A stretch of 64,000 nucleotides of DNA from assembly GCA_963678065.2 (NCBI GenBank), contig CAXXVZ010000004.1, forward strand, positions 576,001-640,000, read 5' to 3'. Each line of letters starts with the position of its first letter. The stretch's first letter is position 1. The translations under genes and the position numbers were made by a program. Of the stretch, positions 47,749 through 63,091 are shown in pieces. Origin of the DNA: Treponemataceae bacterium. GTDB taxonomy: Bacteria > Spirochaetota > Spirochaetia > Treponematales > Rectinemataceae. Below the pieces are notes generated by a model. It made no database searches, was not told where the DNA came from, and was given only the letters and a program-made list of their open reading frames with translations.

Positions 47749-49254
47749 TTAATCGGCGTCCGTAAACGCCACTGCTCTTGTCTTTTTTACCACGGGCAGC
47801 GCGATGATGACAATCAGAAAGACCGTCGCGAGCAAGAGGCCGGCGGAGATCGGGCGTGTCACGAAGACCGAAAATTTTCCCCTGGACAGAAGCAGCGCCC
47901 GGCCAAAATTCTCTTCCATCATCGGACCCAGTATGAATCCGAGCAGAAGCGGTGCCACCTCGCAGTCGAGCCATCGGAACAGCACTCCGAGGATCGTGAA
48001 AAAAATCGCCACATAAAGATTGAATACACTGTTGTTCAAGGAATAGATGCCGATGCAGCAGAACATGACGATCGCAGGGTAGAGCAGCCTGTAGGGGATC
48101 GTCAGCAGTTTGACCCAGATGCCGATCAGAGGCAGGTTCAGCACGACGAGCATGAGGTTCCCGATCCACATCGAGACGATCAGGCCCCAGAACAGAGCCG
48201 GGTTCGAACTCATCACGAGAGGACCGGGCTGGATGTTGTGGATGCTCATGGCGCCAACCATCAGCGCCATGACCGCGTTGGTCGGAATGCCCAGCGTCAG
48301 GAGAGGGATGAAGGAAGTCTGGGAGGCCGCGTTGTTGGCCGACTCGGGTCCCGCCACACCTTCGATCGCGCCCTGGCCGAATTCCTCCGGGTGTCTGGAC
48401 ACTTTCTTCTCGAGCGTGTAGGCCGCAAACGAGGCGAGCGTGGCACCTCCGCCGGGCAACACGCCCAACAGACTCCCGATCCCCGTACCGCGCAGGATCG
48501 GAGCGACCATTCTCTTGAAATCTTCCTTTGTCGGCCACATTCCATTGATCTTCCGCATGGCGGTTTCGCCCTGTTTGCGCGGGCCGAGGTTCGAGATCAC
48601 CTCCGCGAAACCGAACAGCCCCATGGCGACGCAGACAAAGTCGATACCGTCGTAGAGCGGGGCGCTCTTGAATGTGAAGCGGGCGATTCCCGAGTTGACG
48701 TCCGCCCCCACAAGGCCGAGCAGCAATCCGATGATTATCATGCAGATGGCCTTGATCAGGGAACCGGACGAAAGTACGACAGCCCCGACGAGGCCGAGAG
48801 TCATCAGGGAGAAGTATTCGGTCGGCCCGAAACGGAGCGCCAGCTGGGATAGGGGCACCGAGAAAGCGGCGAGAATGAGCGTGGCGACGCATCCTGCGAA
48901 AAATGAGCCCATCGCGGCGGTGAAGAGAGCCACCCCCGCGCGCCCCTTGCGGGCCATCTGGTAGCCATCGATCGCAGTCACGACGGAGGAAGACTCGCCG
49001 GGTATGTTGACGAGTATCGCCGTTGTCGAACCACCGTACGCGGCGCCGTAGTAGATGCCCGCGAGCATGATCAGCGCCGAGACGGGATTAAGCCCGTAGG
49101 TCGCAGGCAGCAGCATCGCGATCGTAGCCACCGGCCCCAGACCGGGCAGGACGCCTATCAGGGTACCGAGGAGGCAGCCTATCAGCGAATAGAGCAGGTT
49201 GATCGGCGAAAGCGCCGTGGAAAATCCCAATGCCAGATTGGTTAGCATGTTCAT
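47749..49254 (-). CDS. tctA: Tripartite tricarboxylate transporter large permease
   Basis: GVLPGLG, YGGSTTAILVNIPGE and GPESANNA motifs. Confidence 0.93.
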   Translation of the reverse strand: MNMLTNLALGFSTALSPINLLYSLIGCLLGTLIGVLPGLGPVATIAMLLPATYGLNPVSALIMLAGIYYGAAYGGSTTAILVNIPGESSSVVTAIDGYQMARKGRAGVALFTAAMGSFFAGCVATLILAAFSVPLSQLALRFGPTEYFSLMTLGLVGAVVLSSGSLIKAICMIIIGLLLGLVGADVNSGIARFTFKSAPLYDGIDFVCVAMGLFGFAEVISNLGPRKQGETAMRKINGMWPTKEDFKRMVAPILRGTGIGSLLGVLPGGGATLASFAAYTLEKKVSRHPEEFGQGAIEGVAGPESANNAASQTSFIPLLTLGIPTNAVMALMVGAMSIHNIQPGPLVMSSNPALFWGLIVSMWIGNLMLVVLNLPLIGIWVKLLTIPYRLLYPAIVMFCCIGIYSLNNSVFNLYVAIFFTILGVLFRWLDCEVAPLLLGFILGPMMEENFGRALLLSRGKFSVFVTRPISAGLLLATVFLIVIIALPVVKKTRAVAFTDAD

Positions 49255-49264
49255 GTTCGTCCAC

Positions 49265-49735
49265 CTATCCCGCTATGCGAAGATCCGGCCAGACAAGGAA
49301 CGGCAGGCGCAATCCCTTGACGAAAACCAGGTATGCGAAAGCCATCAGGGCGACCGCAAGAATGAGCATTTCCTTGAAAGTCCTCTTCTCTTCGCTTGCC
49401 ACGGCGGATATGACCGTCATGAGGGCGATCGAAGCCATCAATCCAAGCCTCGGGAGAGCGAGCGCGAAGATGAGGATCGAGAGGCTGATCAAGGAGATGG
49501 GGCGCCATTGCCACTCCCCCATCGAAACAACGGCCGTCCGGGTGGATATTGACCTCACCGACACGACCAGTCCGAGTACGGCGAGCAAGGATCCCAATAC
49601 GAAGGGAAAGTATCCCGGTCCGATCTCCCTGGCTGTCCCGAGTTTGTAGCTCCATGACATCGACGCAAAACAGAGGCCAATGGCCATGAAGAGCAGGCCG
49701 GAAAAGAAATCGCGCTGATTACGTATCCTCATCAT
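49265..49735 (-). CDS. tctB: Tripartite tricarboxylate transporter small permease
   Basis: Four TM segments, GPGYFP motif, adjacent to tctA. Confidence 0.88.
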   Translation of the reverse strand: MMRIRNQRDFFSGLLFMAIGLCFASMSWSYKLGTAREIGPGYFPFVLGSLLAVLGLVVSVRSISTRTAVVSMGEWQWRPISLISLSILIFALALPRLGLMASIALMTVISAVASEEKRTFKEMLILAVALMAFAYLVFVKGLRLPFLVWPDLRIAG

Positions 49736-49786
49736 GACTCCGTCCCGCGGCTCTTCCGCGGATGTTGATGACGTTCCCCGCCCATA

Positions 49787-50785
49787 CTAAGGCCCGTATT
49801 CGGCGGCCTTGCGCAGGGCGTGCAGATTCTCGTGCGGTGTCCTGCCGATCTGAACCGAGCATCCCGGCCCGAGGACGAATCCTCTCCCGTGGGTCAGGTC
49901 GATGGACCGCCGCGCGGTTTCGATCACGTCCTGCGGAGAGCCATGGACGAGCGTCTTCGCGCTGACTCCGCCTCCCACTGCCCTTCCGCACAGTTCCTGG
50001 CCCTCTTTGTAGTCCGGATTGTTGCCCGCTTCGCAGTCCCAATGCATGAGCCGTACGGGATAGCCCGACAGGGCGCCCAACTGCACACGGTCCTCGCAGA
50101 GGTGGAGCATGTTGCACCACAGCGGCCTGGCCTCTTCCAGGACGCGCAGATCGAAGGGGCGGACCAGGCGGCAGTACTGTTCGGCAGTCAATTTCACATC
50201 GTTGGCCCACTTCGTCGCGAAGTAGATCCCGTCTATCCCCTCGGCCACCAGACGCCGGACGAACAGAGCGAAGGTTTCGGCTATCGCGTCCAGAGCGATT
50301 TCCAGACTCTCGGGATCCTGCTCGATATGACTCTTCAGCAAGGAGGCGTTCCGGTCGACCAATTTCTCCGCCACGTCCAGCGGCGAGAATACGGTCATGA
50401 TAACGGGCACATCGCGGGATACCCTCGCGCGAATCAGCCTCAGGGCATCCACCTGTTCCTGCAGGGCCTCCGACGTGGGAGGAAGGGGACGAATCGAGCG
50501 CCAATCGGCACTCGTGCCGATGGGATGGGACGTGCACACATGGAGCTTGTCGGGATCGTTGGAAGGTTCGTAGGTAAATCCCCACCCTTCCACATGGTAA
50601 CTCGCGCGGGAATGCACCTTCACGAAATCCCAGTCATACTCTTCGAAAAAACCGACCATTGCGTCGGCAAAGGTATCCGCCGAAGTTTCCGAGACGTAGA
50701 AATGTCCCCAGGCGCTGACGGGCACACGGTCGGGGATTTTGCCCGAGAGTGCCGCCTCGAGCCGTTGCATGCGGTTCATTCTCAT
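49787..50785 (-). CDS. Uroporphyrinogen decarboxylase/MtaA-like family protein
   Basis: PDRVPVSAWGHF, TVFSP, MLHLC and FVLGPGCS motifs; ATGA-coupled to the dipeptidase gene. Confidence 0.8.
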   Translation of the reverse strand: MRMNRMQRLEAALSGKIPDRVPVSAWGHFYVSETSADTFADAMVGFFEEYDWDFVKVHSRASYHVEGWGFTYEPSNDPDKLHVCTSHPIGTSADWRSIRPLPPTSEALQEQVDALRLIRARVSRDVPVIMTVFSPLDVAEKLVDRNASLLKSHIEQDPESLEIALDAIAETFALFVRRLVAEGIDGIYFATKWANDVKLTAEQYCRLVRPFDLRVLEEARPLWCNMLHLCEDRVQLGALSGYPVRLMHWDCEAGNNPDYKEGQELCGRAVGGGVSAKTLVHGSPQDVIETARRSIDLTHGRGFVLGPGCSVQIGRTPHENLHALRKAAEYGP

Positions 50786-51774
50786 GCCCCCCATATTTCC
50801 CTAAGGTACCTGAGCCAGTTCTCACCGAGGATCTTGCGGATTTTGGGTTCCGCCCAACCTGCCTTCACCATCGCGTCGACCAGGCGAGGGCGTTCCGATA
50901 GCGGGCCGAGCGGCTTGACGACTTTCTCGCTCCCGAAAGGAGTGAGCACTCTCGCATAGCCCTTGTCGCGGTTGCACCAATCCATGAAGGCGCTCGGGCG
51001 ACCATGTCCCTGCGATGCGTCGGAACCGACACCGACATTGTCCTCTCCCACGAGGGAAATCACATAGTCGAGCGATTCGACGTAATCGACTATCGTCGAA
51101 TCATTGCCCCTTTTCATAGCCGGACCGAACTCGGATAGTCCGATCATGCCGCCGCGCGCTCCTACCGCCTTGATAAGTTCGTCGGACTTGTTGCGCTTGC
51201 CGTCCTTGAGCCCGAGTGGCTGTATGTGCGAGAAGCAGGGCGGCTTCGGAGCGTACGCAATCACCTCGGCCGAGGTCCGCGCTCCGACATGGGAGAGATC
51301 GCAGACGATTCCGAGGCGTGCCATCTCATCCACCACTTCCCGACCGAAACCGGTAAGCCCGGAATCGTTCAGCTCGGTGTAGCCAGCCCCGGAATAGTTC
51401 TGCGTGTTGTAGGTGATCTGCATGATCTTGACCCCGAGGGCGGCGAAGATCTGCAGGTAGTCGATGCGATCCTCGATTCCGGAAGTGTTTTGCCACGACA
51501 GCACGACGGCGGTCTTACCATCGCGCTTGGCGCGACGGATGTCATTTGTCGTGAAAGCCTGGACAATGAGATCGGAGTTCTGCGAGAAAAAGCGATTCCA
51601 CGCCACGATATTGTCGAGCGAGCCCCGTATTCCTTCCCACAGGCCGCATGTGGCCGAAACACCTGTAAAACCGCCCTTTCTCCATTCTCTGAATATTTCG
51701 GGGGACCAGTTGCAGATGTTGAGTCCATCGAAAACTATCGCATCATCGTAAATTCCCGCAGAATCACGCTCCAT
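50782..51774 (-). CDS. Membrane dipeptidase (M19)-family amidohydrolase
   Basis: QITYN, GLTGFGREVV, DLSHVG, RNKSDE and VGVGSD motifs. Confidence 0.85.
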   Translation of the reverse strand: MERDSAGIYDDAIVFDGLNICNWSPEIFREWRKGGFTGVSATCGLWEGIRGSLDNIVAWNRFFSQNSDLIVQAFTTNDIRRAKRDGKTAVVLSWQNTSGIEDRIDYLQIFAALGVKIMQITYNTQNYSGAGYTELNDSGLTGFGREVVDEMARLGIVCDLSHVGARTSAEVIAYAPKPPCFSHIQPLGLKDGKRNKSDELIKAVGARGGMIGLSEFGPAMKRGNDSTIVDYVESLDYVISLVGEDNVGVGSDASQGHGRPSAFMDWCNRDKGYARVLTPFGSEKVVKPLGPLSERPRLVDAMVKAGWAEPKIRKILGENWLRYLREIWGA

Positions 51775-51832
51775 TCTCAGTACCCCTCCATCGTGGATGT
51801 TTCGTAAAATATGATGTCCAAATAGCGCGGCA

Positions 51833-52807
51833 TCATTGGTCTATTGTGATTTTCGCGGCGGTGATGACTTTCTTCCATTTCTCGATTTCAGCGCTGAAGA
51901 AATCGCGCATCTTGCCGCGGGCTGTGGTCATCTCCACGTAGCCGAGCTCGACGATCTTCTTCCTGACCTCCGGCTCCGCCATTGCCTTGTGGATTTCAGC
52001 ATCCAGTTTATCCGCGATCGCCGCAGGCGTACCGGCGGGCGCGAGCACCGTGATCCAGCCTTCAGCCGAGTAGCCGGCTATGCCGGACTCCGCCAGGGTG
52101 GGAACATCGGGGAGGAAGGGCGAGCGCTTCGATGAAGTGACAGCGAGTGCCCTGACCGTTCCGGCCTTGATCTGCGACATTATCGCGGGGATGGTCTCCG
52201 ACATGAAGGCAATCTGCCCTCCCAAAAGACCGGTCAGCGCGGGAGCGGCGCCCTTGTAGGGAATATGCTGGAGGCTGATGCCCGCCATACCGGCAAAGTA
52301 CTCGGCGAAAAGGTGCTGGGTGGAACCTTTCCCGGATGAAGCGAAGGTCACCTGGCCTGGAGACTGTCTGGCGGTCTTGATGAGATCGTTCAAGGTCTTT
52401 ATCGGCGAAGACGCGGGAACGACGAAGACCTGGGCGACTGTCGCTATTCCCGACACGGGCTCGAAATCCTTCAATGTGTCGTATTTGACGATTTCCGGCT
52501 GGAGCGTGGGCGAAATGCTCATCGCGCCGCTGGATCCCATGACGAGAGTATAGCCGTCGGCGGGCTGGGAAGTAGCCAAATAGGTACCGATCGTGCCCGA
52601 GGCTCCCGCCTTGTTATCGATCACGAAAGGCTGCCCGAGCTGTGTCGACAAGCGCTCGCAGATGATCCTGAGCAGGATATCGGCTCCCTGCCCGGGCGGA
52701 TAGGGCATGATGACCTTCACAGCCCGTGTCGGAAAACTCTGGGCCGAAGCCAGTGTGATCGCGCCAACCAACCATACCGCAGTCAGAAGCCGAGTCGTCA
52801 ATTTCAT
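51833..52807 (-). CDS. tctC: Tripartite tricarboxylate transporter substrate-binding protein (Bug family)
   Basis: Signal peptide; PYPPG, DNKAGASG, PADGYTL, HIPYKG and PDVPTLAE motifs. Confidence 0.9.
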   Translation of the reverse strand: MKLTTRLLTAVWLVGAITLASAQSFPTRAVKVIMPYPPGQGADILLRIICERLSTQLGQPFVIDNKAGASGTIGTYLATSQPADGYTLVMGSSGAMSISPTLQPEIVKYDTLKDFEPVSGIATVAQVFVVPASSPIKTLNDLIKTARQSPGQVTFASSGKGSTQHLFAEYFAGMAGISLQHIPYKGAAPALTGLLGGQIAFMSETIPAIMSQIKAGTVRALAVTSSKRSPFLPDVPTLAESGIAGYSAEGWITVLAPAGTPAAIADKLDAEIHKAMAEPEVRKKIVELGYVEMTTARGKMRDFFSAEIEKWKKVITAAKITIDQ

Positions 52808-52881
52808 ACCGATCCTCCTCTTCAAGTTCCATCGCGTGATATAGGTCATGGCCCTGACCGGCCATCTTTTCCGGAAAAAAC

Positions 52882-53640
52882 TCAGCCCTGTTCGCGTACC
52901 GCCTGCTCGAGAACGTGTTTCGCCCTGGCCAGATGCTCGCGCATTTTCTGGGAGGCCGCGGCGCTGTCTTTCGCTTTTATCAAGTCGAAAAGCTCCCGGT
53001 GGTCGCTCACCGCCTGCTCGCTCGTGCGGCTACCTTTCATGAATTGGTTTCTCAGGTAGCGCAGCCAGTCGATCAAATACCTGTTGATATCGACAAGGGC
53101 CATATTGTGGGAAGCCGCTATGACCGCCGAGTGGAAATCCATGGTCGACTCCATGAATCCAGCGCCCGCGTCGTCCTTCCTGCCCATCTCGTCGAGCGCG
53201 GCCTCGATCGTGGCAAGGTCCTCATCAGTTCGCCTCTCGGCCGCGAGGTACACCGCCTGAATCTCTATGCCTTCGCGCACCTCGAACAGATCCAGAAGCG
53301 CGTGATTCGAGTTCATCATCACGACATCGATGTTGTCGATGATGTCATTCGCGGTGATCTTCTTGACGAACACACCCTTGCCATGGACATTCTGCACTAC
53401 TCCTACGAATTCGAGGACTTTCAAGGCTTCGCGGATGGGAACACGGCTGACATCGAATATCTCAGCCAGCTCTCTTTCGGATGGCAGCATATCCCCTTCC
53501 TTGAGCCTTCCTGTCCTTATCCATTCCCGGACCCTGTCGTATATCTGGTTGTACAGAGCGCCACTCTTTTTTATCGCGACCTTATCCAGCGGTCTTGTAT
53601 CGTCTCCAAGCACGCGAGGCCCCCTTAAGCCGGATGTCAC
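52882..53640 (-). CDS. FadR/GntR family transcriptional regulator
   Basis: LPSERELAEIFDVSRVPIREAL HTH and FCD domain; start uncertain. Confidence 0.9.
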   Translation of the reverse strand: MTSGLRGPRVLGDDTRPLDKVAIKKSGALYNQIYDRVREWIRTGRLKEGDMLPSERELAEIFDVSRVPIREALKVLEFVGVVQNVHGKGVFVKKITANDIIDNIDVVMMNSNHALLDLFEVREGIEIQAVYLAAERRTDEDLATIEAALDEMGRKDDAGAGFMESTMDFHSAVIAASHNMALVDINRYLIDWLRYLRNQFMKGSRTSEQAVSDHRELFDLIKAKDSAAASQKMREHLARAKHVLEQAVREQG

Positions 53641-53895: not shown

Positions 53896-55017
53896 ATGAT
53901 CAGTAAAAGCGATATCAAACGACTAAAGGGCAATCTGCAGGCTGAACGGGAAGCCGTCTATCTCTACCGCAAGCTTTCGGAATCGGAGTCCATCGGACAG
54001 CTGAAAACTGTCTATCTCAAGCTCGCGGAAACAGAGGGAAAGCATGTCGCCGTATGGGAAAACAAACTGCGCGAAGCGGGTGTCGCGCCTGATATCTTTC
54101 GCCCGGGCTTCAAAACCCGCCTCCTGTCCTTCCTCTCCAAAAGGGCGGGCGCCGGGGCCGTCGCGCCTCTGATCGCGGCGATCGAAAAAAACGCGGGGAG
54201 CGAGTACTCCGACCAGCCCGAGGCCGAGGCAGAGGGGATGGGCAGGGAAGAAAAGTCCCACGCCAGGGTCTTCAATTACCTCGCGCGGCAGTCGGGTGGT
54301 GTCGGAGGGCCCGATCTGGCCCGACTGGAGGGTCGACACAAAGCGGGTGGCAATGCCCTGCGCGCGGGCGTTCTCGGAGCCAATGACGGCCTGATCAGCG
54401 TGTTCTCCCTCGTCATGGGAGTCGCCGGCGCCGGCGTGGGCAGCAAGGAGATACTCATAACAGGAGGAGCCGGCCTGCTCGCGGGAGCCCTCTCGATGTC
54501 TCTGGGCGAATGGCTCTCGGTGCAGAACGCGCGTGAACTCTACAAACACCAGCTGAAAATCGAGTCGCGAGAGCTCGAAGAAGCGCCCGAGGAGGAGCGC
54601 GAGGAGCTGAGCCTCATCTATCAGGCCAAGGGTTTCGATCCGGAACACGCACGGAAAATGGCGGACAAGCTGCTGGAGGACAAGACACAGGCTCTCGACA
54701 CTCTTGCCCGGGAAGAGTTGGCGATCGACCCCTCCGAGCTCGGCGGGTCGGCCTGGGAGGCCGCCATCACAAGTTTCATTTTATTCGTCGTCGGAGCTGT
54801 TTTTCCGGTTCTTCCCTACTTTTTCTTTACGGGGATGACAGGAATTGTGGTGAGCGGAATCTCGTCGGCCATCGGACTCTTCATTCTCGGAATTCTCTCC
54901 AGCTTCATGAATGGCGTACACTGGGCTGTCTCGGGAATCCGCCAGGTTCTCTTCGGCGTCGCGGCCGGGCTTGTCACCTTCGGGATCGGTCACATCATCG
55001 GGGTGTCCGTGAACTGA
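53896..55017 (+). CDS. Rubrerythrin-like/VIT1-CCC1 fusion iron exporter
   Basis: N-terminal ExxH helices (EGKH, EKSH), then LRAGVLGANDGL and AGALSMSLGEWLSV. Confidence 0.9.
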   Translation: MISKSDIKRLKGNLQAEREAVYLYRKLSESESIGQLKTVYLKLAETEGKHVAVWENKLREAGVAPDIFRPGFKTRLLSFLSKRAGAGAVAPLIAAIEKNAGSEYSDQPEAEAEGMGREEKSHARVFNYLARQSGGVGGPDLARLEGRHKAGGNALRAGVLGANDGLISVFSLVMGVAGAGVGSKEILITGGAGLLAGALSMSLGEWLSVQNARELYKHQLKIESRELEEAPEEEREELSLIYQAKGFDPEHARKMADKLLEDKTQALDTLAREELAIDPSELGGSAWEAAITSFILFVVGAVFPVLPYFFFTGMTGIVVSGISSAIGLFILGILSSFMNGVHWAVSGIRQVLFGVAAGLVTFGIGHIIGVSVN

Positions 55018-55186
55018 ATCGCCACCCTTCCAGCGGTCGCCGGGTCGCTCGGAAAAGCAGTCCGTAAGGCTTCCGGCGCTTGTTCTCCGCCATTGCGACT
55101 TGGCTGTTGCGATTTAGCTGGCCCTTTCCGTGAAAGCGATCTAGAATTGCTTGTTTTCGCCTCGGAAGGACTGTCAGGAAGGTCAG

Positions 55187-55564
55187 ATGAAACGCGCTTC
55201 GCCACATGACTCGGAGAGAAAGGATCGGGCAGGGCCACTCGTTCTGCTCGCGCTCATAGCCGCCGCCTTCGTACCTTCCCTCTTCATGGAATTCGACGTC
55301 CAGACCTTCAAATCCTTCAGCCGGATGTCTGAGAGACGCATCGCCGCTCCTCTTGGCTCAGTTTATCTGTCCGCATCGGAGGTCCCGGTCTTCCCCGATG
55401 CGGAGACGGAAGCCGCCTTTCAGGTTTCCTCCTCTCCCCAGGATGGGAGCGAAGCCGTATCCCGCTCCGAGGCGCCCAGCCTTCCCGCCCCTCACAGCCC
55501 CACAGTTGCAGCCCTCCTCTGGCCTCCGGGCTCGTTTGCGCCGCGCGCTCCTCCCCTCTCCTAG
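55187..55564 (+). CDS. Putative RAPP-motif ribosome-arrest leader peptide (125 aa) upstream of amtB
   Basis: AGGAAGG RBS; hydrophobic segment LVLLALIAAAFVPSLF; S/E/P-rich linker; ends ...GSFAPRAPPLS*. Confidence 0.65.
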   Translation: MKRASPHDSERKDRAGPLVLLALIAAAFVPSLFMEFDVQTFKSFSRMSERRIAAPLGSVYLSASEVPVFPDAETEAAFQVSSSPQDGSEAVSRSEAPSLPAPHSPTVAALLWPPGSFAPRAPPLS

Positions 55565-55704
55565 CGCTTTCGCCGGCCGCCGCCGCGCGGCCGAAGAGCT
55601 ATTCGCGTCCCACAAGCCACGCCGCAGGCGCACGCGGCGCGGCCTTCCGGGGATGAGTCACCTTCGCATCGGCCATCCCCACTGAAATAAGGAGAAAATC
55701 ACAC

Positions 55705-56949
55705 ATGCCAATCGATACAGGCAGCACAGGCTTCATGCTTTTGGCGACGGCCCTCGTCATGTTCATGACGCCCGGCCTCGCATTCTTTTATGGCGGCCTC
55801 GTGGGCCGCAAGAACGTGCTCACCATCATGTTCCAGAGCTTCATCTCTCTCGGTGTCACGACGGTGATCTGGTTCATCGCGGGCTATTCGATGTGCTTCT
55901 CCGGTTCCCTGGGAAAAGGAGACCTGGGAGGCATAATCGGCAACCTGAATATGGCTTTTTTCAGAGGCGTGGACATCATGGGAGCGAGTCCCATGAATCC
56001 GAGCGTGCCGGTTTTCGTCTTCGTGGCGTACCAGATGATGTTCGCCATCATCACGCCCGCGCTCATAACGGGCGCTTTCGCGAACCGCGTCCGTTTCCCG
56101 GCTTACCTCCTCTTCCTCGTCACCTGGCTCGTCCTCGTCTACTTTCCCCTCGTGCACATGGTCTGGGGTGGCGGAATCCTCGCGGCCTGGGGCGTCAAAG
56201 ACTTCGCCGGCGGCATCGTCGTCCACACTTCCGCGGGCTTCGCCGCCTTCGCAAGCGTGCTCTTTGTCGGCAAGCGAAAGGTCTCGGACAAAGGACTTCA
56301 TTCGCTCCCCCTCGTCGCCCTCGGCACCGCCATCCTCTGGTTCGGCTGGTACGGCTTCAACGCCGGCTCGGAGTTCGGGGTGGATCGCATAACGGCTCTC
56401 GCCTTCCTCAACACGGATATAGCCGCGTCATTCGCGGGGCCGACCTGGCTCCTTCTCGACTGGATATTCACCCGCAAGCCGAGATTCCTCGGTTTCCTCA
56501 CGGGCTCGGTCGCAGGACTTGCCACCATCACGCCCTGCGCGGGCTTCGTGTCCACTCCCTCGGCGGTGATCATCGGCGTGCTGGCCTCCGGCGCCTGCTA
56601 CCTCGCCGTCCACATCAAGAACAAAGCCGGCCTCGATGACGCCCTCGATGTCTTCGGAGTCCACGGCATAGGCGGTTTCCTCGGAACCATCCTCCTCGGC
56701 GTCTTCGGCTCCGCCGCCATGACCATCCCCGGACGGGATCCTGCTCTCCTCGCCTCGGGCCTCGTGGACGGTCGCGCTGACCTTCTCGTCAAGCAGAGCC
56801 TCACGGCTCTGGGCACCGCGGCCTACGCCTTCTGTTTCACCCTCGGCATGCTCTGGCTCATCAACAAAGTGACGAAAGTGCGCGTCTCCGAGAAGGAGGA
56901 GATGGCGGGACTCGACATGGTGGAACACGGCGAGGAGGCATACCTCTGA
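55705..56949 (+). CDS. amtB: Ammonium transporter
   Basis: MTPGLAFFYGG, DFAGGIVVH, WFGWYGFNAGS, DDALDVFGVHG and GLDMVEHGEEAY motifs. Confidence 0.96.
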   Translation: MPIDTGSTGFMLLATALVMFMTPGLAFFYGGLVGRKNVLTIMFQSFISLGVTTVIWFIAGYSMCFSGSLGKGDLGGIIGNLNMAFFRGVDIMGASPMNPSVPVFVFVAYQMMFAIITPALITGAFANRVRFPAYLLFLVTWLVLVYFPLVHMVWGGGILAAWGVKDFAGGIVVHTSAGFAAFASVLFVGKRKVSDKGLHSLPLVALGTAILWFGWYGFNAGSEFGVDRITALAFLNTDIAASFAGPTWLLLDWIFTRKPRFLGFLTGSVAGLATITPCAGFVSTPSAVIIGVLASGACYLAVHIKNKAGLDDALDVFGVHGIGGFLGTILLGVFGSAAMTIPGRDPALLASGLVDGRADLLVKQSLTALGTAAYAFCFTLGMLWLINKVTKVRVSEKEEMAGLDMVEHGEEAYL

Positions 56950-56979
56950 AAGTGAAAACGCTCAGGATTGACGGGCAGT

Positions 56980-57020
56980 AACGAACGAACCTCGGAGCCC
57001 CGCTCCGGGGTTCGTTCGTT
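56980..57020 (+). terminator. Hairpin terminator after amtB
   Basis: AACGAACGAACCTCGGAGC-CCC-GCTCCGGGGTTCGTTCGTT. Confidence 0.65.
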
Positions 57021-57036
57021 CTGTAAGGAATAGATT

Positions 57037-57084
57037 GCATGCGGGTCCATACCCGACAGAGCTTCGGGGTATGGACCCGCATGC
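57037..57084. repeat. Perfect 18-bp inverted repeat after cbiB
   Basis: GCATGCGGGTCCATACCC...GGGTATGGACCCGCATGC. Confidence 0.8.
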
Positions 57085-57109
57085 GAATCGCTCGCCCCCG
57101 GAAAGGTGT

Positions 57110-58123
57110 TCAGCGCCGGATCATCGCCAGCGCGCCAACTCTGAGCGCGGCGCCCAGGACGACGAGGAGAAGAGCCTGGGCGTACATGAGGCGGACGGCA
57201 TTGGCAATCATGGCGGGAGAGGCGGGTTCGGGGCCGTCGCCCATGACAGGGTGATCGATGCGTTCGCCCTTGTAAGAGGCTGGGCCGCCGAGTCGAGTGC
57301 GCAGGGCGCCTGCGAAGACGGCTTCGGGGTGGCCGGAGTTGGGGCTCTCGTGTTTGAGTCTGTCGCGCGCAAGGATGCGCAGTGCAGATCGCGCGTCGAG
57401 CCCGAGGACGAGGGCGCAGGGGACGGTGAGGGCGGCGGCGAGGCGGGCGGGAAGGAAGGTCGCGATGTCGTCGGCGCGGGCGGAGAGGCGGCCGAACAGG
57501 AGGTAGCGCTCGCTCTTGTGCCCGAACATGGAGTCGAGGGTGTTGGCGGCGCGGTAGGCGAAGGCGGCCCAGGGGCCGAGGAGGAGTGCCCAGAAGAGGG
57601 GAGCCGAGACGCCATCCACGGAACTCTCGGCGACGCTCTCCACGCAGGCGCGGGCGACGGCGCTTTCGTCCAGCCTGTCGGTGTCCCTGCCGACCACCAT
57701 CGAGACGGCGCGCCGGGCCGCGCCGAGATCGCCCGCGAGGAGGGCGCGGCGGACGCGCATGGCGTGGAGCGAGAGGTCTCGCGGGGCGATGGAGGCCCAG
57801 ACGAAGAGTGCGTCGAGTGCGACGCCGAGGGCGGGATGGACACGAAAGGCCGCGAGCGGAAGGAGGATGGCCGCGGCCGCGGATGCTCCCACGACGGCGA
57901 GCCAGGCGAGGACGCCGGCTGCGCGGGGCTCGAGGCGCGGCCGGAGAATCGTTTCGGCCTGGGTGGCGAGATCCCCGAGGAGCCTCACCGGATGGAGGGA
58001 GAAGACAGGGTCGCCCGCGATGCAGTCTGCGGCGATTCCGAAGAGGATCGCGAGGGTGGCAGGGTCCGAGGCGATGGCGGAGGTCAAGACAGTGAGGGCG
58101 GACGCAAGGCCGGCAGGCTGCAT
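57110..58123 (-). CDS. cbiB: Adenosylcobinamide-phosphate synthase
   Basis: HPVRLLG, VGRDT, ESVAESSVDG, NTLDSMFG and HESPNSGHPEA motifs. Confidence 0.93.
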   Translation of the reverse strand: MQPAGLASALTVLTSAIASDPATLAILFGIAADCIAGDPVFSLHPVRLLGDLATQAETILRPRLEPRAAGVLAWLAVVGASAAAAILLPLAAFRVHPALGVALDALFVWASIAPRDLSLHAMRVRRALLAGDLGAARRAVSMVVGRDTDRLDESAVARACVESVAESSVDGVSAPLFWALLLGPWAAFAYRAANTLDSMFGHKSERYLLFGRLSARADDIATFLPARLAAALTVPCALVLGLDARSALRILARDRLKHESPNSGHPEAVFAGALRTRLGGPASYKGERIDHPVMGDGPEPASPAMIANAVRLMYAQALLLVVLGAALRVGALAMIRR

Positions 58124-61095
58124 CAGGATCTCGGGCCGGAGAGGGAACCTGAGTCCGCGATCGGGCGGGCGGGACCGGGAAGGAGCCCCGCGCCCTTCAG
58201 GATGGCGGGGATATCGCAGGACTCGCGCACGACTCGCGCGAGGCGGTCGAGTTCCGCGTCGAGGGAGCGGAATGCCTTCGCTCCGGAGGGTGGAAGGCCC
58301 CTGCGCGCACGCAGGGAGTCGAGGAAGTGGCCCCGGAAGGCGTCCTCATCGAAGAGGCCGTGGAGGTAGCTGCCCCAGACCGCGCCTCTCTGCCAGCCGA
58401 CGGGGGCGCCTGAAGCCTTACCTGACGGCTCACCTGAAAGTGCACCTTCAGGTGAGCCGTCAGACGCACGTAAAGACGAATCTTCAGACGAGCCTTCAGG
58501 GAGGCCGTCAGACGGGCCCTGACGCGGGTCGTTACGGAGCCTGAGGATCACGTCGCAATCGGCGGGGATGGAGGGTTCGGCGAGGTCCGCGACATCGGGG
58601 CCACCGGAGCCCTCCGGCCTTCGCGGGGCTTCGGTCGCATCCTCGACCCAGGTTTCGCCGTGGTGGATCTCGTAGCCGGTCACCCTTAGCCCCGAGGCAA
58701 GGTGGGTGGCCTCGACGCGTCTCAAAGTCTTGTCGCGCTCGAACGAGGTTACGACGGGGAGGAGGCCGAAGCCCGCGGTCTCATCGGCCATGGACTCGAC
58801 GTGGCCGGGATCGAGTATCCTCGCGCCGAGCATCTGGAGGCCTCCGCAGATGCCGACGATGGCTGTGCCCGCCGCGGCGAGGCGTCTCAGCTCGGGCTCG
58901 ACTCCGCGCTCACGCAGGTAGGCGAGGTCGGCGACCGTCGCCTTCGTGCCCGGGATGATGACCGCGTCCCAGTCGCCCGCGGCGAGCTCTGCTCCCGTCG
59001 ATACGGCGCTCACCGAAACATCGGGCTCGGCGTCGAGGGGGTCCAGGTCGGTGAAGTTGGAGACGCGACGGAGGCGCAGGACGGCGATCTTCAGAGGGGC
59101 GCCGGACTTGTCCCCGCGCAGGAGCCTGGGCTCGTCCTCGTCGGGGAGCTCGAGGTCGCGTATGTAGGGCACGCAGCCGAGGACAGGTTTGCCGGTAGCC
59201 TTCCGGGTGAGGTCGAAGGCGTCGCCGAGAAGGGCCTGGTCGCCCCGGAATTTGTTGACGATGAAGCCGGCGAGGATGTCTTTTTCGGCGGGCGAGAAGG
59301 TCGCGACGTGACCGATGAAGGAGGCGAAGACCCCTCCCCTGTCGATGTCGCCGACGAGGAGGACACTGGCCTTCGCATGGAAGGCCGCGCGCATGTTGAC
59401 GAAATCGCGGCTTTTCAGGTTGATCTCGCCCGGACTGCCCGCTCCCTCGAGAACGATGACCTCGTGCTCGGCGGCGAGAGAATCGTAGGCCGCGTAAGCG
59501 GTCTCGCGCATGAGTCGGCCGCGAGCATAGTAATCTTTCGCCGCGAGCTGCTCCACGGGTTTCCCCATGAGGACGACCTGGGAACTCGAATCGGTGGAGG
59601 GCTTGAGGAGAACGGGATTCATGCGCACATCGGCGGGGAGACCGCAGGCGGCGGCCTGGAGGGCCTGGGCACGGCCGATCTCGAGCCCGTCGTCCGTCAC
59701 CGCGGAGTTGAGGGACATGTTCTGGGCCTTGTAGGGCGCGACGTCGTAGCCCTCGTCGCGGAGGATGCGGCAGAAGGCGGCGGCGATGAGGCTCTTGCCC
59801 GCGCTCGAGGAACAGCCCTGGATCATGAGGGCTTTCGCGCGCCGGGGCGCGGCCGGAGCCGGGGCGGCAGTGGCCGCGGGCGAGCCTGGCCCGGGGGCTT
59901 CGGCTGAAGTGCAGGAGGCAGTTTGATCCGGGGCTTCGGCCGGGGTCGCCGCCGCGGCTTCCAGAACCTCGCGCAAGGCTCCCGCGACGACGTCGTTCTC
60001 TTCGGGCCTCCGCAGGCCGATCCTGATGTGCCTCGCGTCGAGGCCGGGATAGTTCGAGCAGTCGCGGACCCCGATTCCCATGTGGGCGAGCAGGCCGGCG
60101 AGGGTCGGAGCCTCCGGCCCCGACTCGATCCTGCAGAGGAAGAAGTTCGCGTCGGAGGGGAATACGGTAAGACCAGGGATGGCGCAGAGAAGCTCGCGCA
60201 CGCGCCTCCGCTCGTAGTCCACGAGGTGGCGGGAGCGCAGCGACCTCGTGCCCGGATCGGCGAAGGCGCGCAGGCCGAATCGCAGGGCGAGGCAGGAGAC
60301 GGGCCAGGAGGGAAGCGCCTCGCGGACTGCCGCCGCCACCTCGGGCGCCGCGACGAGGTAGCCGAGCCTTATGCCGGGCACGGCCCAGAACTTCGTCATG
60401 GAGCGCAGAACAATGACATTGGGCCTGAGGCGGGCGACGCTGGAGGCCCCCCTGCCCGCGGCGCGGCCTTCCGGAGCGTCGAGAAAGTCGACGAAGGCCT
60501 CGTCGACCACGATCCAGACGGCGGGGTTGGAGTCGGCCACTGTTGCGACTTCCTCCACGGAGAGAGCCAGTCCGGTGGGATTGTTGGGCCTCCCGAGCCA
60601 GAGCGAGGAGCCGGGGGCGAGCTTCGCGACGAGGTTGGTCAGGATGTCCGGCTCGAAGCGGTAGCCATTCTCGCGGCGGAGGAAAAGGGAGCCCGCCATG
60701 AAGCCCGCCGACTCGAGGGCCTCGCGGTAGCTCGCGTAGGAGGGTTCGACGATGACGGCCTTGGCCTCGTTCTCCGGCGAGGAGCCGGGATTGCGGGCGA
60801 AAGTGGAGCGTTTCAGTGTCTGTGCGAGGGCGTAGAATATCTCGTCGGCGCCGTTTCCGAAGACGAAGCATTCGGGCGGGATATCGAGGGCTCGGGAAGC
60901 CGCATCGCGAAGTTCCCGATACTCGGGGTCGGGGTAGTGTCCCGCGTCGCGCTTGACTTCCTCCCAGATGCCGTCGAGCCACTCGGGGGGACCGAGGGGG
61001 TTGAGGTTGGCGCTCGCGTCGACGATGCGGGAAGGGTCGAGTCCGGAAGCCCGGACGAGGGCGTCGACATTCCCTCCGTGGAGAGTTCGGGACAT
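58123..61095 (-). CDS. cobQ: Fused threonine-phosphate decarboxylase (CobD) / cobyric acid synthase (CobQ/CbiP)
   Basis: N-terminal HGGN, DASANLNPLG, PNNPTG, DEAF and SMTKFWAVPGIRLGY; C-terminal QGCSSSAGKS, KAQNMSLNS, EGAGSPGEINL, GICGGLQML, GYEIHHG and YLHG. Confidence 0.92.
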   Translation of the reverse strand: MSRTLHGGNVDALVRASGLDPSRIVDASANLNPLGPPEWLDGIWEEVKRDAGHYPDPEYRELRDAASRALDIPPECFVFGNGADEIFYALAQTLKRSTFARNPGSSPENEAKAVIVEPSYASYREALESAGFMAGSLFLRRENGYRFEPDILTNLVAKLAPGSSLWLGRPNNPTGLALSVEEVATVADSNPAVWIVVDEAFVDFLDAPEGRAAGRGASSVARLRPNVIVLRSMTKFWAVPGIRLGYLVAAPEVAAAVREALPSWPVSCLALRFGLRAFADPGTRSLRSRHLVDYERRRVRELLCAIPGLTVFPSDANFFLCRIESGPEAPTLAGLLAHMGIGVRDCSNYPGLDARHIRIGLRRPEENDVVAGALREVLEAAAATPAEAPDQTASCTSAEAPGPGSPAATAAPAPAAPRRAKALMIQGCSSSAGKSLIAAAFCRILRDEGYDVAPYKAQNMSLNSAVTDDGLEIGRAQALQAAACGLPADVRMNPVLLKPSTDSSSQVVLMGKPVEQLAAKDYYARGRLMRETAYAAYDSLAAEHEVIVLEGAGSPGEINLKSRDFVNMRAAFHAKASVLLVGDIDRGGVFASFIGHVATFSPAEKDILAGFIVNKFRGDQALLGDAFDLTRKATGKPVLGCVPYIRDLELPDEDEPRLLRGDKSGAPLKIAVLRLRRVSNFTDLDPLDAEPDVSVSAVSTGAELAAGDWDAVIIPGTKATVADLAYLRERGVEPELRRLAAAGTAIVGICGGLQMLGARILDPGHVESMADETAGFGLLPVVTSFERDKTLRRVEATHLASGLRVTGYEIHHGETWVEDATEAPRRPEGSGGPDVADLAEPSIPADCDVILRLRNDPRQGPSDGLPEGSSEDSSLRASDGSPEGALSGEPSGKASGAPVGWQRGAVWGSYLHGLFDEDAFRGHFLDSLRARRGLPPSGAKAFRSLDAELDRLARVVRESCDIPAILKGAGLLPGPARPIADSGSLSGPRS
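58409..58524. repeat. Degenerate 12-bp repeats containing a 42-bp near-perfect palindrome (58422-58463) inside cobQ
   Basis: CTGACGGCTCACCTGAA-AGTGCACC-TTCAGGTGAGCCGTCAG. Confidence 0.8.
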
Positions 61096-61104
61096 GATTC
61101 GCTC

Positions 61105-62028
61105 CTACAGAACTCCGAGTATGGCGAGGGCGCAGGCCAGATGGCCCAGGCTGCCGAGACAGACGGCCGCGCCCAGGGCGTCGCCCGTGTAGCCGCCGAG
61201 CTTTCGGCCGTAGGAGGCAAGCATGGGCAGGAGACCCGCGGCGACCCCGCAGACGAAGCCCACGCCGGTAGCGGTCAGCGATCGCCCGACGGCCGGGAAC
61301 CGCGCGATGATACCTGTAGCTTCGGCCGAAACGGCGGGAGCGGCTCCGGCCGCGGCGCGCGCCTCCCCCAAGAATAGCGCGGAAAGCCAGGCGATGGCGA
61401 GGCATATCGCGGCGGAAAGAGCGAGGCCGGTCCAGGCCGCGCGCTTCGAGTAGGGCTGGAGCATGGCCCCGAGGCCGCCGGGCCGGGCCGGGGCGAGGAA
61501 AACCGGAACGAGGGCCGAGGCTGCCCTGCCCGCCACCGGAGCCGCGAGGACGGCCGGGGCGAGAAAGAGCGGCAAGGCGCTCGCCCGCGCAGCGCAGTAC
61601 CAGAGGGCGCCAAGGTAGGCGACACCCGCGAAGAGGCCGAAGGAGCCGACGCGCGGGTCTTTGAGTATCTCGAGCCGCCTCTCGCGGCTGCCCCCACCCA
61701 TGAAGGCGTCGGCCGAGTCGAGGAGGCCGTCGAGATGGAAGAGGTCGAAGGCGAGGTAGAGGAAGAGAAGGGCGCAGAAGGCCCTCGCCCCGCCGGTCGC
61801 GAAGGCGAGGGATGAGAGCGCGTAGCCGCCCGCTGCCACGAGGGCGGCCGCGAAGCCGACCATCGGGAGCCAGAGTGGGACGCCCGAGAAGTCCGGCTCG
61901 CCTTTCAGCGGAACGGGAAAGCGCGAGACCAGGATGAGGGTCGACAGGGCCCTGCGCGCCGGTCCACGCCCACGCCGCGCTGAACCGTGTCCGGCCCGCG
62001 CCGGAGCGCCCTCAGTAGTTCTGCTCAT
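61105..62028 (-). CDS. cobS: Adenosylcobinamide-GDP ribazoletransferase
   Basis: HLDGLLDSADA, LEILKDPRVGSFG and GGYTGDALGA motifs. Confidence 0.92.
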   Translation of the reverse strand: MSRTTEGAPARAGHGSARRGRGPARRALSTLILVSRFPVPLKGEPDFSGVPLWLPMVGFAAALVAAGGYALSSLAFATGGARAFCALLFLYLAFDLFHLDGLLDSADAFMGGGSRERRLEILKDPRVGSFGLFAGVAYLGALWYCAARASALPLFLAPAVLAAPVAGRAASALVPVFLAPARPGGLGAMLQPYSKRAAWTGLALSAAICLAIAWLSALFLGEARAAAGAAPAVSAEATGIIARFPAVGRSLTATGVGFVCGVAAGLLPMLASYGRKLGGYTGDALGAAVCLGSLGHLACALAILGVL

Positions 62029-63091
62029 CCTCGATGCTCCTCGCCACGCCCATGGTCTCGAAGGTGGCCATCTGCGAGGCGAACTTGGCGGACAGTTCGA
62101 GCATGAATCCGCCGATGACGGCGCCCGTGCCCTCTCCGAGGCGCATCTCGAAGTTCACGATGGGCTCGAGCCCCATCGCCTTGAGTACGGGGAGGTGGCC
62201 CTTCACCTTGGACTGGTGGCCGGCGAACATGTAGGCTGCGGTCTCCGGGTCCATCATATAGGCAATCCACGCGGCGGAGGTGACAGGGAAGCCGTCTATG
62301 AGGCAGGCGATGCCCTTCCCCTTCAGACCGAGGATGAGCCCGGTCATGGTGGCGATCTCGAGGCCGCCCAGAGCCGCGAGGATCTCCTTCGGCCCGGCGA
62401 AGGGTCCGCGGTTCTTCACCGCCTCGGCGATGACCGTGAATTTCCTGGCGAGGGCGGCATCGTCGATGCCCGTGCCGCGGTCGACGATGAGTTCGGGGGC
62501 GAAGCCTCCGGCGACGAGGAGGGCGGCGGCGGCCGTCGTGTTGCCGATGCCCATGTCGCCGATGGCGACGTAGCGGTAGCCGGACAGGGCGGCGCGCTCG
62601 GCGAGCTTCCGGCCGTTCGCGAGGCAGGCCTCGAGGACTTCGGGGCTCATGGCGTTTTCGCGGGCGAAGTTCTTCGTGCCGCGGGCGGCCTTCGCGCGGA
62701 TGAGACCGGGGCTCGCGCCGAGGGGGCCCTCGCTGCCGGACTCGTGGGCGGGAAGCTCGCCGATCACGAGCTCGCCCTCGATGCCGGCGTCCACCGCGAA
62801 GACGTCGAAACCGCAGCCGCGCGCGAGGGCGTTGATGGCGGCGCCTCCCGCGAGAAAGTTGATCGCCATCTGTGCCGTGACTTCTTTCGGGAAGAGAGAG
62901 ACACCCTCCTCGGTGACGCCGTGGTCTCCCGCGATGACGAAGACGGCTTTCTTGCCGGGTTTAGGGGGAACCTGCCCCTGCACGAGGGCGAGCCTCGTGG
63001 CGAGATCTTCGAGCAGGCCGAGGCTGCCCTTGGGCTTGGTGAGGTTGTCGAGGTGGGCGCGCATCGCTGTTTCGAGCTTCGTGTCGATCAT
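62012..63091 (-). CDS. cobT: Nicotinate-nucleotide--dimethylbenzimidazole phosphoribosyltransferase
   Basis: LTKPKGSLGLLE, AGDHGV, GDMGIGNTT, GGLEI and MRLGEGTGA motifs. Confidence 0.95.
   Translation of the reverse strand: MIDTKLETAMRAHLDNLTKPKGSLGLLEDLATRLALVQGQVPPKPGKKAVFVIAGDHGVTEEGVSLFPKEVTAQMAINFLAGGAAINALARGCGFDVFAVDAGIEGELVIGELPAHESGSEGPLGASPGLIRAKAARGTKNFARENAMSPEVLEACLANGRKLAERAALSGYRYVAIGDMGIGNTTAAAALLVAGGFAPELIVDRGTGIDDAALARKFTVIAEAVKNRGPFAGPKEILAALGGLEIATMTGLILGLKGKGIACLIDGFPVTSAAWIAYMMDPETAAYMFAGHQSKVKGHLPVLKAMGLEPIVNFEMRLGEGTGAVIGGFMLELSAKFASQMATFETMGVARSIEDEQNY

Follow-up and report, generated by a model that had tools for sequence, protein, structure and literature searches.

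The leader gene and its linkage to amt

The stretch of DNA analyzed here (hereinafter the window) comprises 64,000 nucleotides of the forward strand of contig CAXXVZ010000004.1 (positions 576,001 to 640,000) from a Treponemataceae bacterium. Within it we studied a two-gene unit, in which an open reading frame (ORF) of 125 amino acids with the C-terminus APRAPPLS lies 140 nt ahead of a gene for an Amt-type ammonium transporter (amt). An earlier reading made from the letters alone (the sequence-only reading) had described an ORF with its own ribosome-binding site, a hydrophobic N-terminus and the tetrapeptide RAPP at 55544-55555, two codons before the stop, and all of these lie where it had placed them. 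The elements of the unit are as follows (SD, Shine-Dalgarno sequence):

55142..55147, + strand: possible sigma-70 -10 box TAGAAT for the leader-amt unit, with no good -35 box
55176..55182, + strand: leader SD, AGGAAGG (from the sequence)
55187..55564, + strand: leader ORF, 125 aa (P0001), of a new RAPP/RGPP leader family (translation, homologues)
55229..55291, + strand: membrane helix, residues 15-35, with a kink at Pro30 (AlphaFold2, column counts)
55298..55342, + strand: second helix, residues 38-52 (AlphaFold2); the remaining spacer is predicted to be unstructured
55397..55411, + strand: acidic patch D71-E73-E75, 47-51 residues ahead of the P-site Pro (family acidity peak); candidate membrane-potential pull element
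55544..55555, + strand: RAPP codons CGC GCT CCT CCC; predicted P-site 55550-55552 and A-site 55553-55555 (stall register from PMC12992588)
55557..55562, + strand: anti-SD TCTCCT, within the predicted ribosome footprint (7-12 nt beyond the first base of the P-site codon)
55574..55680, + strand: intergenic hairpins, two of them robust (55574-55593 and 55649-55680) and one variable (55616-55643)
55690..55695, + strand: amt SD, AGGAGA (from the sequence)
55705..56949, + strand: Amt ammonium transporter, 414 aa, with its first conserved segment right at the start (PF00909/TIGR00836)
56995..57013, + strand: terminator-like hairpin closing the unit

The leader is a real, conserved gene, and its peptide family has, as far as searched, not been described before; it has no match in Pfam or NCBIfam. 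Across 26 intact loci (L240, a repeat of L031, being counted once, and the frameshifted L246 left out), the leader lies 39-264 nt upstream of a same-strand amt gene in every case. Among 41 related genomes, all eight with an Amt match of 74-100% carry an upstream ORF with the same helix and an R[AGS]PP motif. A leader profile, blind to the downstream gene but including the motif, towards which its matches are therefore biased, matched 16 of the 69 genomes of the host family (E<=5.5e-10), and these are exactly the 16 that have a member of the Amt clade at >=72%; the nine homologues newly found among them all adjoin the gene of that clade. An order-wide search with the profile yielded nine matches in a second family, all upstream of an Amt at 78-86% (one repeats L031 and one is frameshifted), and one further leader locus came from a metagenome. 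Conversely, 179 other amt loci gave no match to the profile (of the 181 examined, 161 had at least 600 nt upstream; L146, with only 86 nt, is uninformative), nor did any genome of two other families of the order (0/143 and 0/142) or any of 400 genomes in a sample of the phylum. Two profile matches with E>0.001 (L127 and L128) were dropped as not being leaders. A search of 1.84 billion representatives gave 49 leader clusters at 50% identity, of which 47 end in R[AGS]PP, one in QAPP and one is truncated; the distance from Pro30 to the motif Arg is 86-100 residues in 47 of 48 clusters. The sequence-only reading had staked itself on conservation in orthologous loci, and such conservation was found across the 26 intact loci.

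The architecture of the peptide is equally constant. The hydrophobic segment of the window's leader has a Kyte-Doolittle (KD) value of 2.29 over 19 residues and ends 83 residues before the Arg; over the family, all 26 leaders show an N-terminal segment with KD 1.6-2.6 and a spacer of 80-91 residues between it and the motif. AlphaFold2 models the window's peptide with helices at residues 15-27 and 29-35 (predicted local distance difference test score 93 at residues 21-30), and column counts reveal a conserved helix face formed by G16, L20, L23, A27, P30 and S31, together with E35-F36-D37. The R, P and P of the motif make up three of the four columns that are invariant across the 26 loci. Comparison of related strains, which differ at no fewer than 16 places in the leader ORF, points the same way: among the 16 listed, all seven in codons 14-54 are synonymous, seven of the nine in the spacer alter the residue, and none of the 16 lies within 55510-55612. 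Synonymous differences at the N-terminus alongside residue-changing ones in the spacer indicate that the gene is translated and that its N-terminus is under constraint while the spacer tolerates change. Read in all six frames, the 5.27 Mb genome has 36 frames that end in RAPP, two of which pass the hydrophobicity cut; the leader is the sole clear hydrophobic ORF with a C-terminal RAPP, and the second passing frame looks spurious. Along with the conservation over the 26 loci, this goes beyond what chance would give.

Boxes similar to the possible -10 box occur in 11 of the 26 loci (0.44 expected per 300 nt), a weak signal, and a promoter scan did not pick up the box at 55142-55147. Five loci (L006, L116, L121, L124 and L126) have a -10-like box about 9-10 nt before the first leader ATG and no SD, an arrangement that would give a near-leaderless mRNA. 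In at least five of 17 regions (L130, L131, L132, L136 and L139) a gene for a YegS/DAGK-like lipid kinase abuts or overlaps the start of the leader, which suggests translational coupling; the window has no such gene. Directly upstream of the window's leader, with no terminator found between them, lies a VIT1-family gene with a weakly rubrerythrin/COQ7-like N-terminal part (53896-55017). A link to this gene was considered and rejected, as the neighbors vary and only the leader and amt are constant in the 17 regions. Elsewhere in the window, 57110-63091 (- strand) carries the cobalamin genes cbiB, cobS and cobT and a 990-aa fusion of a CobD-like aminotransferase to CobQ; 47749-53640 (- strand) carries an uptake and catabolic cluster with genes for a GntR regulator, TctC, an M19 dipeptidase, a URO-D-like protein and TctA. 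Two long palindromes, the first of them terminator-like, lie 3' of amt at 56975-57085 between the converging genes.

Predicted arrest at the motif and release of the amt Shine-Dalgarno sequence

The motif is RAPP in 16 of the 26 loci, RGPP in nine and RSPP in one, and lies 1-16 codons before the stop. Its Arg is encoded by CGC, CGG, CGA or CGT, and this use of four different codons implies that selection acts on the peptide. In published mutagenesis of the arrest motif the Arg was irreplaceable, while the second position tolerated Gly fully and Ser partly (PMC12992588); the variants seen in the leaders are thus the spectrum that keeps or partly keeps arrest, which favors the arrest reading. 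The same source reports that seven of seven tested Streptomyces lividans proteins of the same build arrested and that RAPP/RGPP is strongly avoided in proteomes, those of Spirochaetota included; arrest by RAPP also varies with context and with the species of the ribosome. The leader shows three of the four features used as search criteria in PMC10987492, the fourth being a sec/yidC target. Its closest named clusters in the Atlas are the DUF2946-type, CzcI and SecM_small clusters (0.90-0.91), which we treat as a lead rather than a test. By analogy with the tested RAPP/RGPP peptides of this build, the leader very probably stalls its ribosome at RAPP. The sequence-only reading had likened the combination of localization signal, spacer and C-terminal RAPP to arrest peptides, and this architecture indeed proved to be conserved together with amt. 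Its further likeness to DUF2946 does not extend to kinship: PF11162 matches just one of the 26 members (E 0.016), and there is no CxxC motif.

Two observations concern the residues around the motif. Nine homologues (among L005-L008, L115, L116, L119 and L121-L123) have 9-11 Arg/Lys in the 35 residues before RAPP, which would be inside the tunnel at stalling, and the branch of the window has W-P-P-G where these are Arg/Lys-rich, so that one family shows two upstream arrest contexts. An N-terminal D-R-A-G-P considered as a SecM-like motif was discarded, its Arg being kept in just 25 of 49 sequences.

Turning to the RNA, the sequence-only reading had proposed that TCTCCT and TTTC just after the motif pair with AGGAGA and GAAA before amt, brought together by three hairpins. 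The four segments lie where it put them. The TCTCCT:AGGAGA pairing reaches a probability of 0.89-0.97 when the fold starts at 55545-55556, and pairing of the amt SD drops to 0.47 once TCTCCT is removed. The TTTC:GAAA helix (55568-55571 with 55684-55687), however, has a probability of <=0.01 in all seven folds and was discarded. Of the hairpins, those at 55574-55593 (0.70-0.84) and 55649-55680 (0.99-1.0) held up over the seven folds and that at 55616-55643 proved variable (0.11-0.85). The length of a ribosome footprint places the anti-SD inside the entry channel of a ribosome stalled at the motif. The whole region folds no better than shuffles (z -0.37); we found no intrinsic terminator between leader and amt; and Rfam searches returned nothing meaningful in 54900-57200 and no riboswitch in 20 amt loci of the 80 fetched (one tmRNA matched).

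It is at the level of the family that the anti-SD gains most support. Blocking the footprint eases opening of the SD by at least 1 kcal/mol in 13 of 26 loci and by more than the null in 19. The hybrid between stall region and SD is stronger than in synonymous shuffles in 22 of the 26, and CCT serves as the P-site Pro codon in 17 of the 26, as against 17% elsewhere in the leaders. The stall region also favors its own SD over the SDs of other loci as a pairing partner (p 5e-5 to 2e-4, values that overstate the effect as the loci are kin; upstream control windows gave 0.97 and 0.31), and when each genus is represented by a single locus (11 groups), the own SD has a median p of 0.010, as against 0.14-0.80 for controls. 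An anti-SD under the predicted stalled ribosome is thus backed by family-level co-variation with the SD, though its energy in the window itself is marginal; on balance, release of the amt SD by the stalled ribosome is the probable output of the switch.

The Amt clade and its nitrogen-control context

Bacterial Amt proteins are a textbook case of control by the nitrogen-regulation (Ntr) system and PII. The sequence-only reading had called the downstream gene amtB; its place in the Amt family stands (TIGR00836 above the cut-off), whereas it falls below the cut-off of the AmtB equivalog (310 vs 657 bits) and is a glnK-less paralogue rather than canonical amtB. Residues F113, W154, D166, H174, W215, F218, S222 and H320, which we take to be the Phe gate, the Trp/Ser binding site, the Asp and the twin His, are invariant in all 29 aligned Amts. 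The leader-bearing Amts form one clade (support 0.978; 25 leader rows in the tree, two leader loci with a partial amt being absent from it) within a wider subfamily that spans many phyla. With flanks of 1.5-6 kb compared, an adjacent glnK was seen in 0/26 leader loci (0/17 of the longer regions) and 1/157 sister loci, as against 20/22 more distant relatives; correspondingly, a sigma-54-like motif was seen in 0/26, 1/157 and 17/22.

The genome of the window holds a separate amt-glnK pair behind a sigma-54-type site. More generally, among the 16 leader-positive genomes of the host family, 11 have a canonical GlnK elsewhere, two have a weak PII-like match only and three have none. In four of five genomes (94-99% complete) picked for a single match, the leader-linked Amt is the sole Amt of the genome, and the search detected no PII. 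The sister glnK-less Amts (L032-L110 and L147-L224; Bacteroidota, Acidobacteriota, Chloroflexota and others) lie in a cluster with two-component kinases and regulators in 45 of 157 loci; the sensors there have dCache and PAS domains, and outer-membrane porins of the BBP2 or Gcw_chp type are also often alongside. We infer from these contexts that the subfamily is not run by Ntr and that its treponemal branch uses the leader where others use two-component systems.

Input signal, rival explanations and significance

Taken together, we read the leader as a conserved membrane-peptide arrest leader of the SecM/ApdP kind that frees the amt ribosome-binding site until its nascent chain is pulled, and give this reading as a whole a probability of roughly 0.55. 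A ribosome on the leader would stall at RAPP with the first Pro in the P-site and cover the anti-SD, leaving the amt SD free and amt translated; the stall would then end when the nascent chain is pulled, the likeliest source of the force being Sec translocation powered by the membrane potential. Several features of the peptide bear on the last step. Basic residues ahead of the helix in most members suggest an N-in topology in which the spacer would run through the translocon while the ribosome is stalled, and in its length the spacer is like those of Sec-type and not of YidC-type monitors (PMC10987492). In 43 of 48 clusters, the leader segment that lies outside the tunnel carries a net acidic charge. 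Acidity peaks 50-54 residues before the P-site, at 0.23 acidic vs 0.04 basic (P0049 and P0050 left out; p 0.003 against shuffling of that segment, in sequences that are kin, with the window's own acidic patch known before the test and exported segments often acidic anyway). Arrest-peptide experiments and simulations locate the force that the membrane potential exerts on acidic residues passing through SecYEG at about 50 residues (bioRxiv 10.1101/310698). Release by translocation force is accordingly the option that we lean towards by a small measure, and the membrane potential or pH as the specific input is a tentative suggestion.

Neutralophiles lose their electrical potential at acid pH. A pH version of the mechanism would have acid weaken the electrical pull on the acidic spacer residues, prolonging the stall, so that Amt would be made when NH3 diffusion fails; in Bacillus, Amt is needed at low ammonium or at acid pH (PMC10334148). 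Literature searches for Amt in treponemes, or for Amt in connection with acid or potassium stress, turned up nothing specific. In its most elaborate and speculative form, which we consider rather doubtful, the leader would be a nascent-chain voltmeter, whose acidic spacer reads the membrane potential or the outside pH at the translocon, sets the amount of Amt and replaces PII/Ntr, being the only visible control of the sole Amt in PII-less genomes.

A number of observations weigh against the reading, beyond the kinship of the loci, the inclusion of the motif in the profile and the prior knowledge of the acidic patch noted above. As regards the RNA, the probability of TCTCCT:AGGAGA falls to 0.11-0.47 once the fold takes in more 5' sequence; in the window, stalling yields a computed gain of just 0.7 kcal/mol, which 55% of synonymous shuffles reach; the gain is below 1 kcal/mol in 13 of 26 loci and negative in four of these; with other fold limits, the probability of SD:footprint pairing is at least 0.59 in 11 of 18 loci but 0.06 in the window; and a shorter, stricter footprint window takes the per-genus median p to 0.043. 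As regards the peptide, P0049 (73 aa) keeps helix and RAPP with a spacer of just 35 residues, and L246 (from a 57%-complete genome) has a frameshift within the spacer that puts RSPP into the following frame, though an assembly error may account for either. Per sequence, the acidic signal is slight (10 of 47 at net <=0 in the test window), and a generic Sec anchor would not need a helix face as conserved as this one (G16, L20 and L23 in 46 of 49). It would also be awkward if Amt drained the membrane potential, since low potential turning Amt on would then amount to positive feedback.

The conserved helix face speaks for another input to the same stall and SD switch, namely a specific ligand or partner: NH4+/K+ would be bound by the face and F28-x-P-S...E35-F-D37, or else these would contact a membrane protein, which might be Amt itself as feedback on its abundance. 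S31 (S/A) is kept in 49 of 49 sequences, E35 (E/D) in 42 and D37 (D/N) in 41; the frequent location of leaderless sister Amts beside sensor kinases and response regulators suggests that the subfamily answers a dedicated signal; and CutF, which like CruR senses copper, offers a precedent (bioRxiv 2025.02.05.636593). Such an input nevertheless seems unlikely to us, as the family has no conserved Cys or His, AlphaFold2 predicts two short helices and no pocket, and at stalling the conserved residues would be about 87 residues from the P-site, probably through the membrane already. The output could alternatively be transcriptional, as described for CruR (PMC9426467), with the stalled ribosome hiding a C-rich Rho-utilization (rut) site and its release letting Rho terminate before amt. 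The genome has rho, the last 78 nt of the leader are richer in C than in G (0.28 in the window), and intergenic regions reach 264 nt with strong hairpins, some of the long ones lacking an SD gain. However, the C>G skew and the YC (pyrimidine-cytosine) counts are no higher than in synonymous shuffles (mean z -0.19 and -0.30; above the null in 10/26 and 7/26), so that the encoded residues explain them, whereas SD complementarity does exceed such shuffles; several intergenic regions are, moreover, just 39-52 nt long, and we regard this alternative as improbable.

The variable, unstructured spacer and the want of visible Ntr-type control at the locus would also suit a leader that senses nothing in the environment, a constitutive stall at the translocon coupling synthesis of the 11-helix Amt to membrane-docked mRNA and thereby limiting and localizing its production. 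Yet the 157 sister Amts (59-69% identity) do without a leader, which is therefore not needed for biogenesis, and the fixed spacer length and positioned charge pattern suggest tuning to force; the chances of this explanation are slim. Slimmer by far are those of the peptide being a small accessory subunit of Amt with no arrest at RAPP: a conserved membrane helix strictly linked to amt, and the variation of RAPP arrest with context and ribosome, would be in keeping with it, but not the concentration of invariance in R, P and P (three of only four such columns), the avoidance of RAPP/RGPP in proteomes (PMC12992588) or a disordered spacer of conserved length.

The arrest leader that we favor has relatives in its predicted mechanism. 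ApdA, ApdP, ApcA and SecM share with it a localization signal, a long spacer, a C-terminal RAPP/RGPP, a downstream gene in the same direction and an SD-sequestering RNA near the stall site, the last of these being predicted for our family (PMC10987492; PMC12992588). Unlike it, the Sec/YidC monitors (SecM, MifM, VemP, ApcA, ApdA and ApdP) target secA, secDF or yidC, whereas the target of the new family is amt in every locus examined; SecM further has an upstream FxxxxWIxxxxGI motif that is absent from the leader. CruR of Bordetella and CutF of Rhodobacter (DUF2946) are likewise exported RAPP leaders that gate a non-Sec gene (PMC9426467; bioRxiv 2025.02.05.636593), CutF by opening a stem-loop that covers the ribosome-binding site of the gene downstream (bioRxiv 2025.02.05.636593). 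They differ in their CxxC metal motif, the window's peptide having no Cys and the family 0-6, unaligned; CruR differs also in its Rho site, for which the new family, with nitrogen uptake as its target, has no codon-level support. The RAPP/RGPP small proteins found before diverse genes resemble the leader in size, motif position and membrane segment; ammonium transporters do not appear in the main text or the top 30 RAPP target groups of that report, further groups being in its appendix (PMC12992588). Canonical amtB-glnK under sigma-54/Ntr, finally, has the same Amt fold, intact gate, twin-His residues and C-terminal tail, but an adjacent glnK and a sigma-54 site, neither of which occurs in any of the 26 leader loci. 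The sequence-only reading knew of no RAPP leader for Amt genes, and our literature search, from which subscription journals were largely absent, likewise found no publication linking RAPP or an arrest peptide to an ammonium transporter. This is hence a new RAPP/RGPP leader family with a new target class, within a class of mechanism that is already known.

PMC12992588 names as an open question what frees RAPP peptides outside the Sec and copper systems. For this question the family provides a clean test case: it lacks metal ligands, its geometry is fixed and its target is a single gene. It also draws attention to an Amt subfamily (>180 loci in many phyla) that is probably regulated by something other than PII/Ntr, in which a whole Amt clade is tied to a predicted ribosome-arrest leader in place of that control. 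If the reading is true, these two families of treponeme-like spirochaetes would control nitrogen uptake, through the RAPP leader, in a way that is new.

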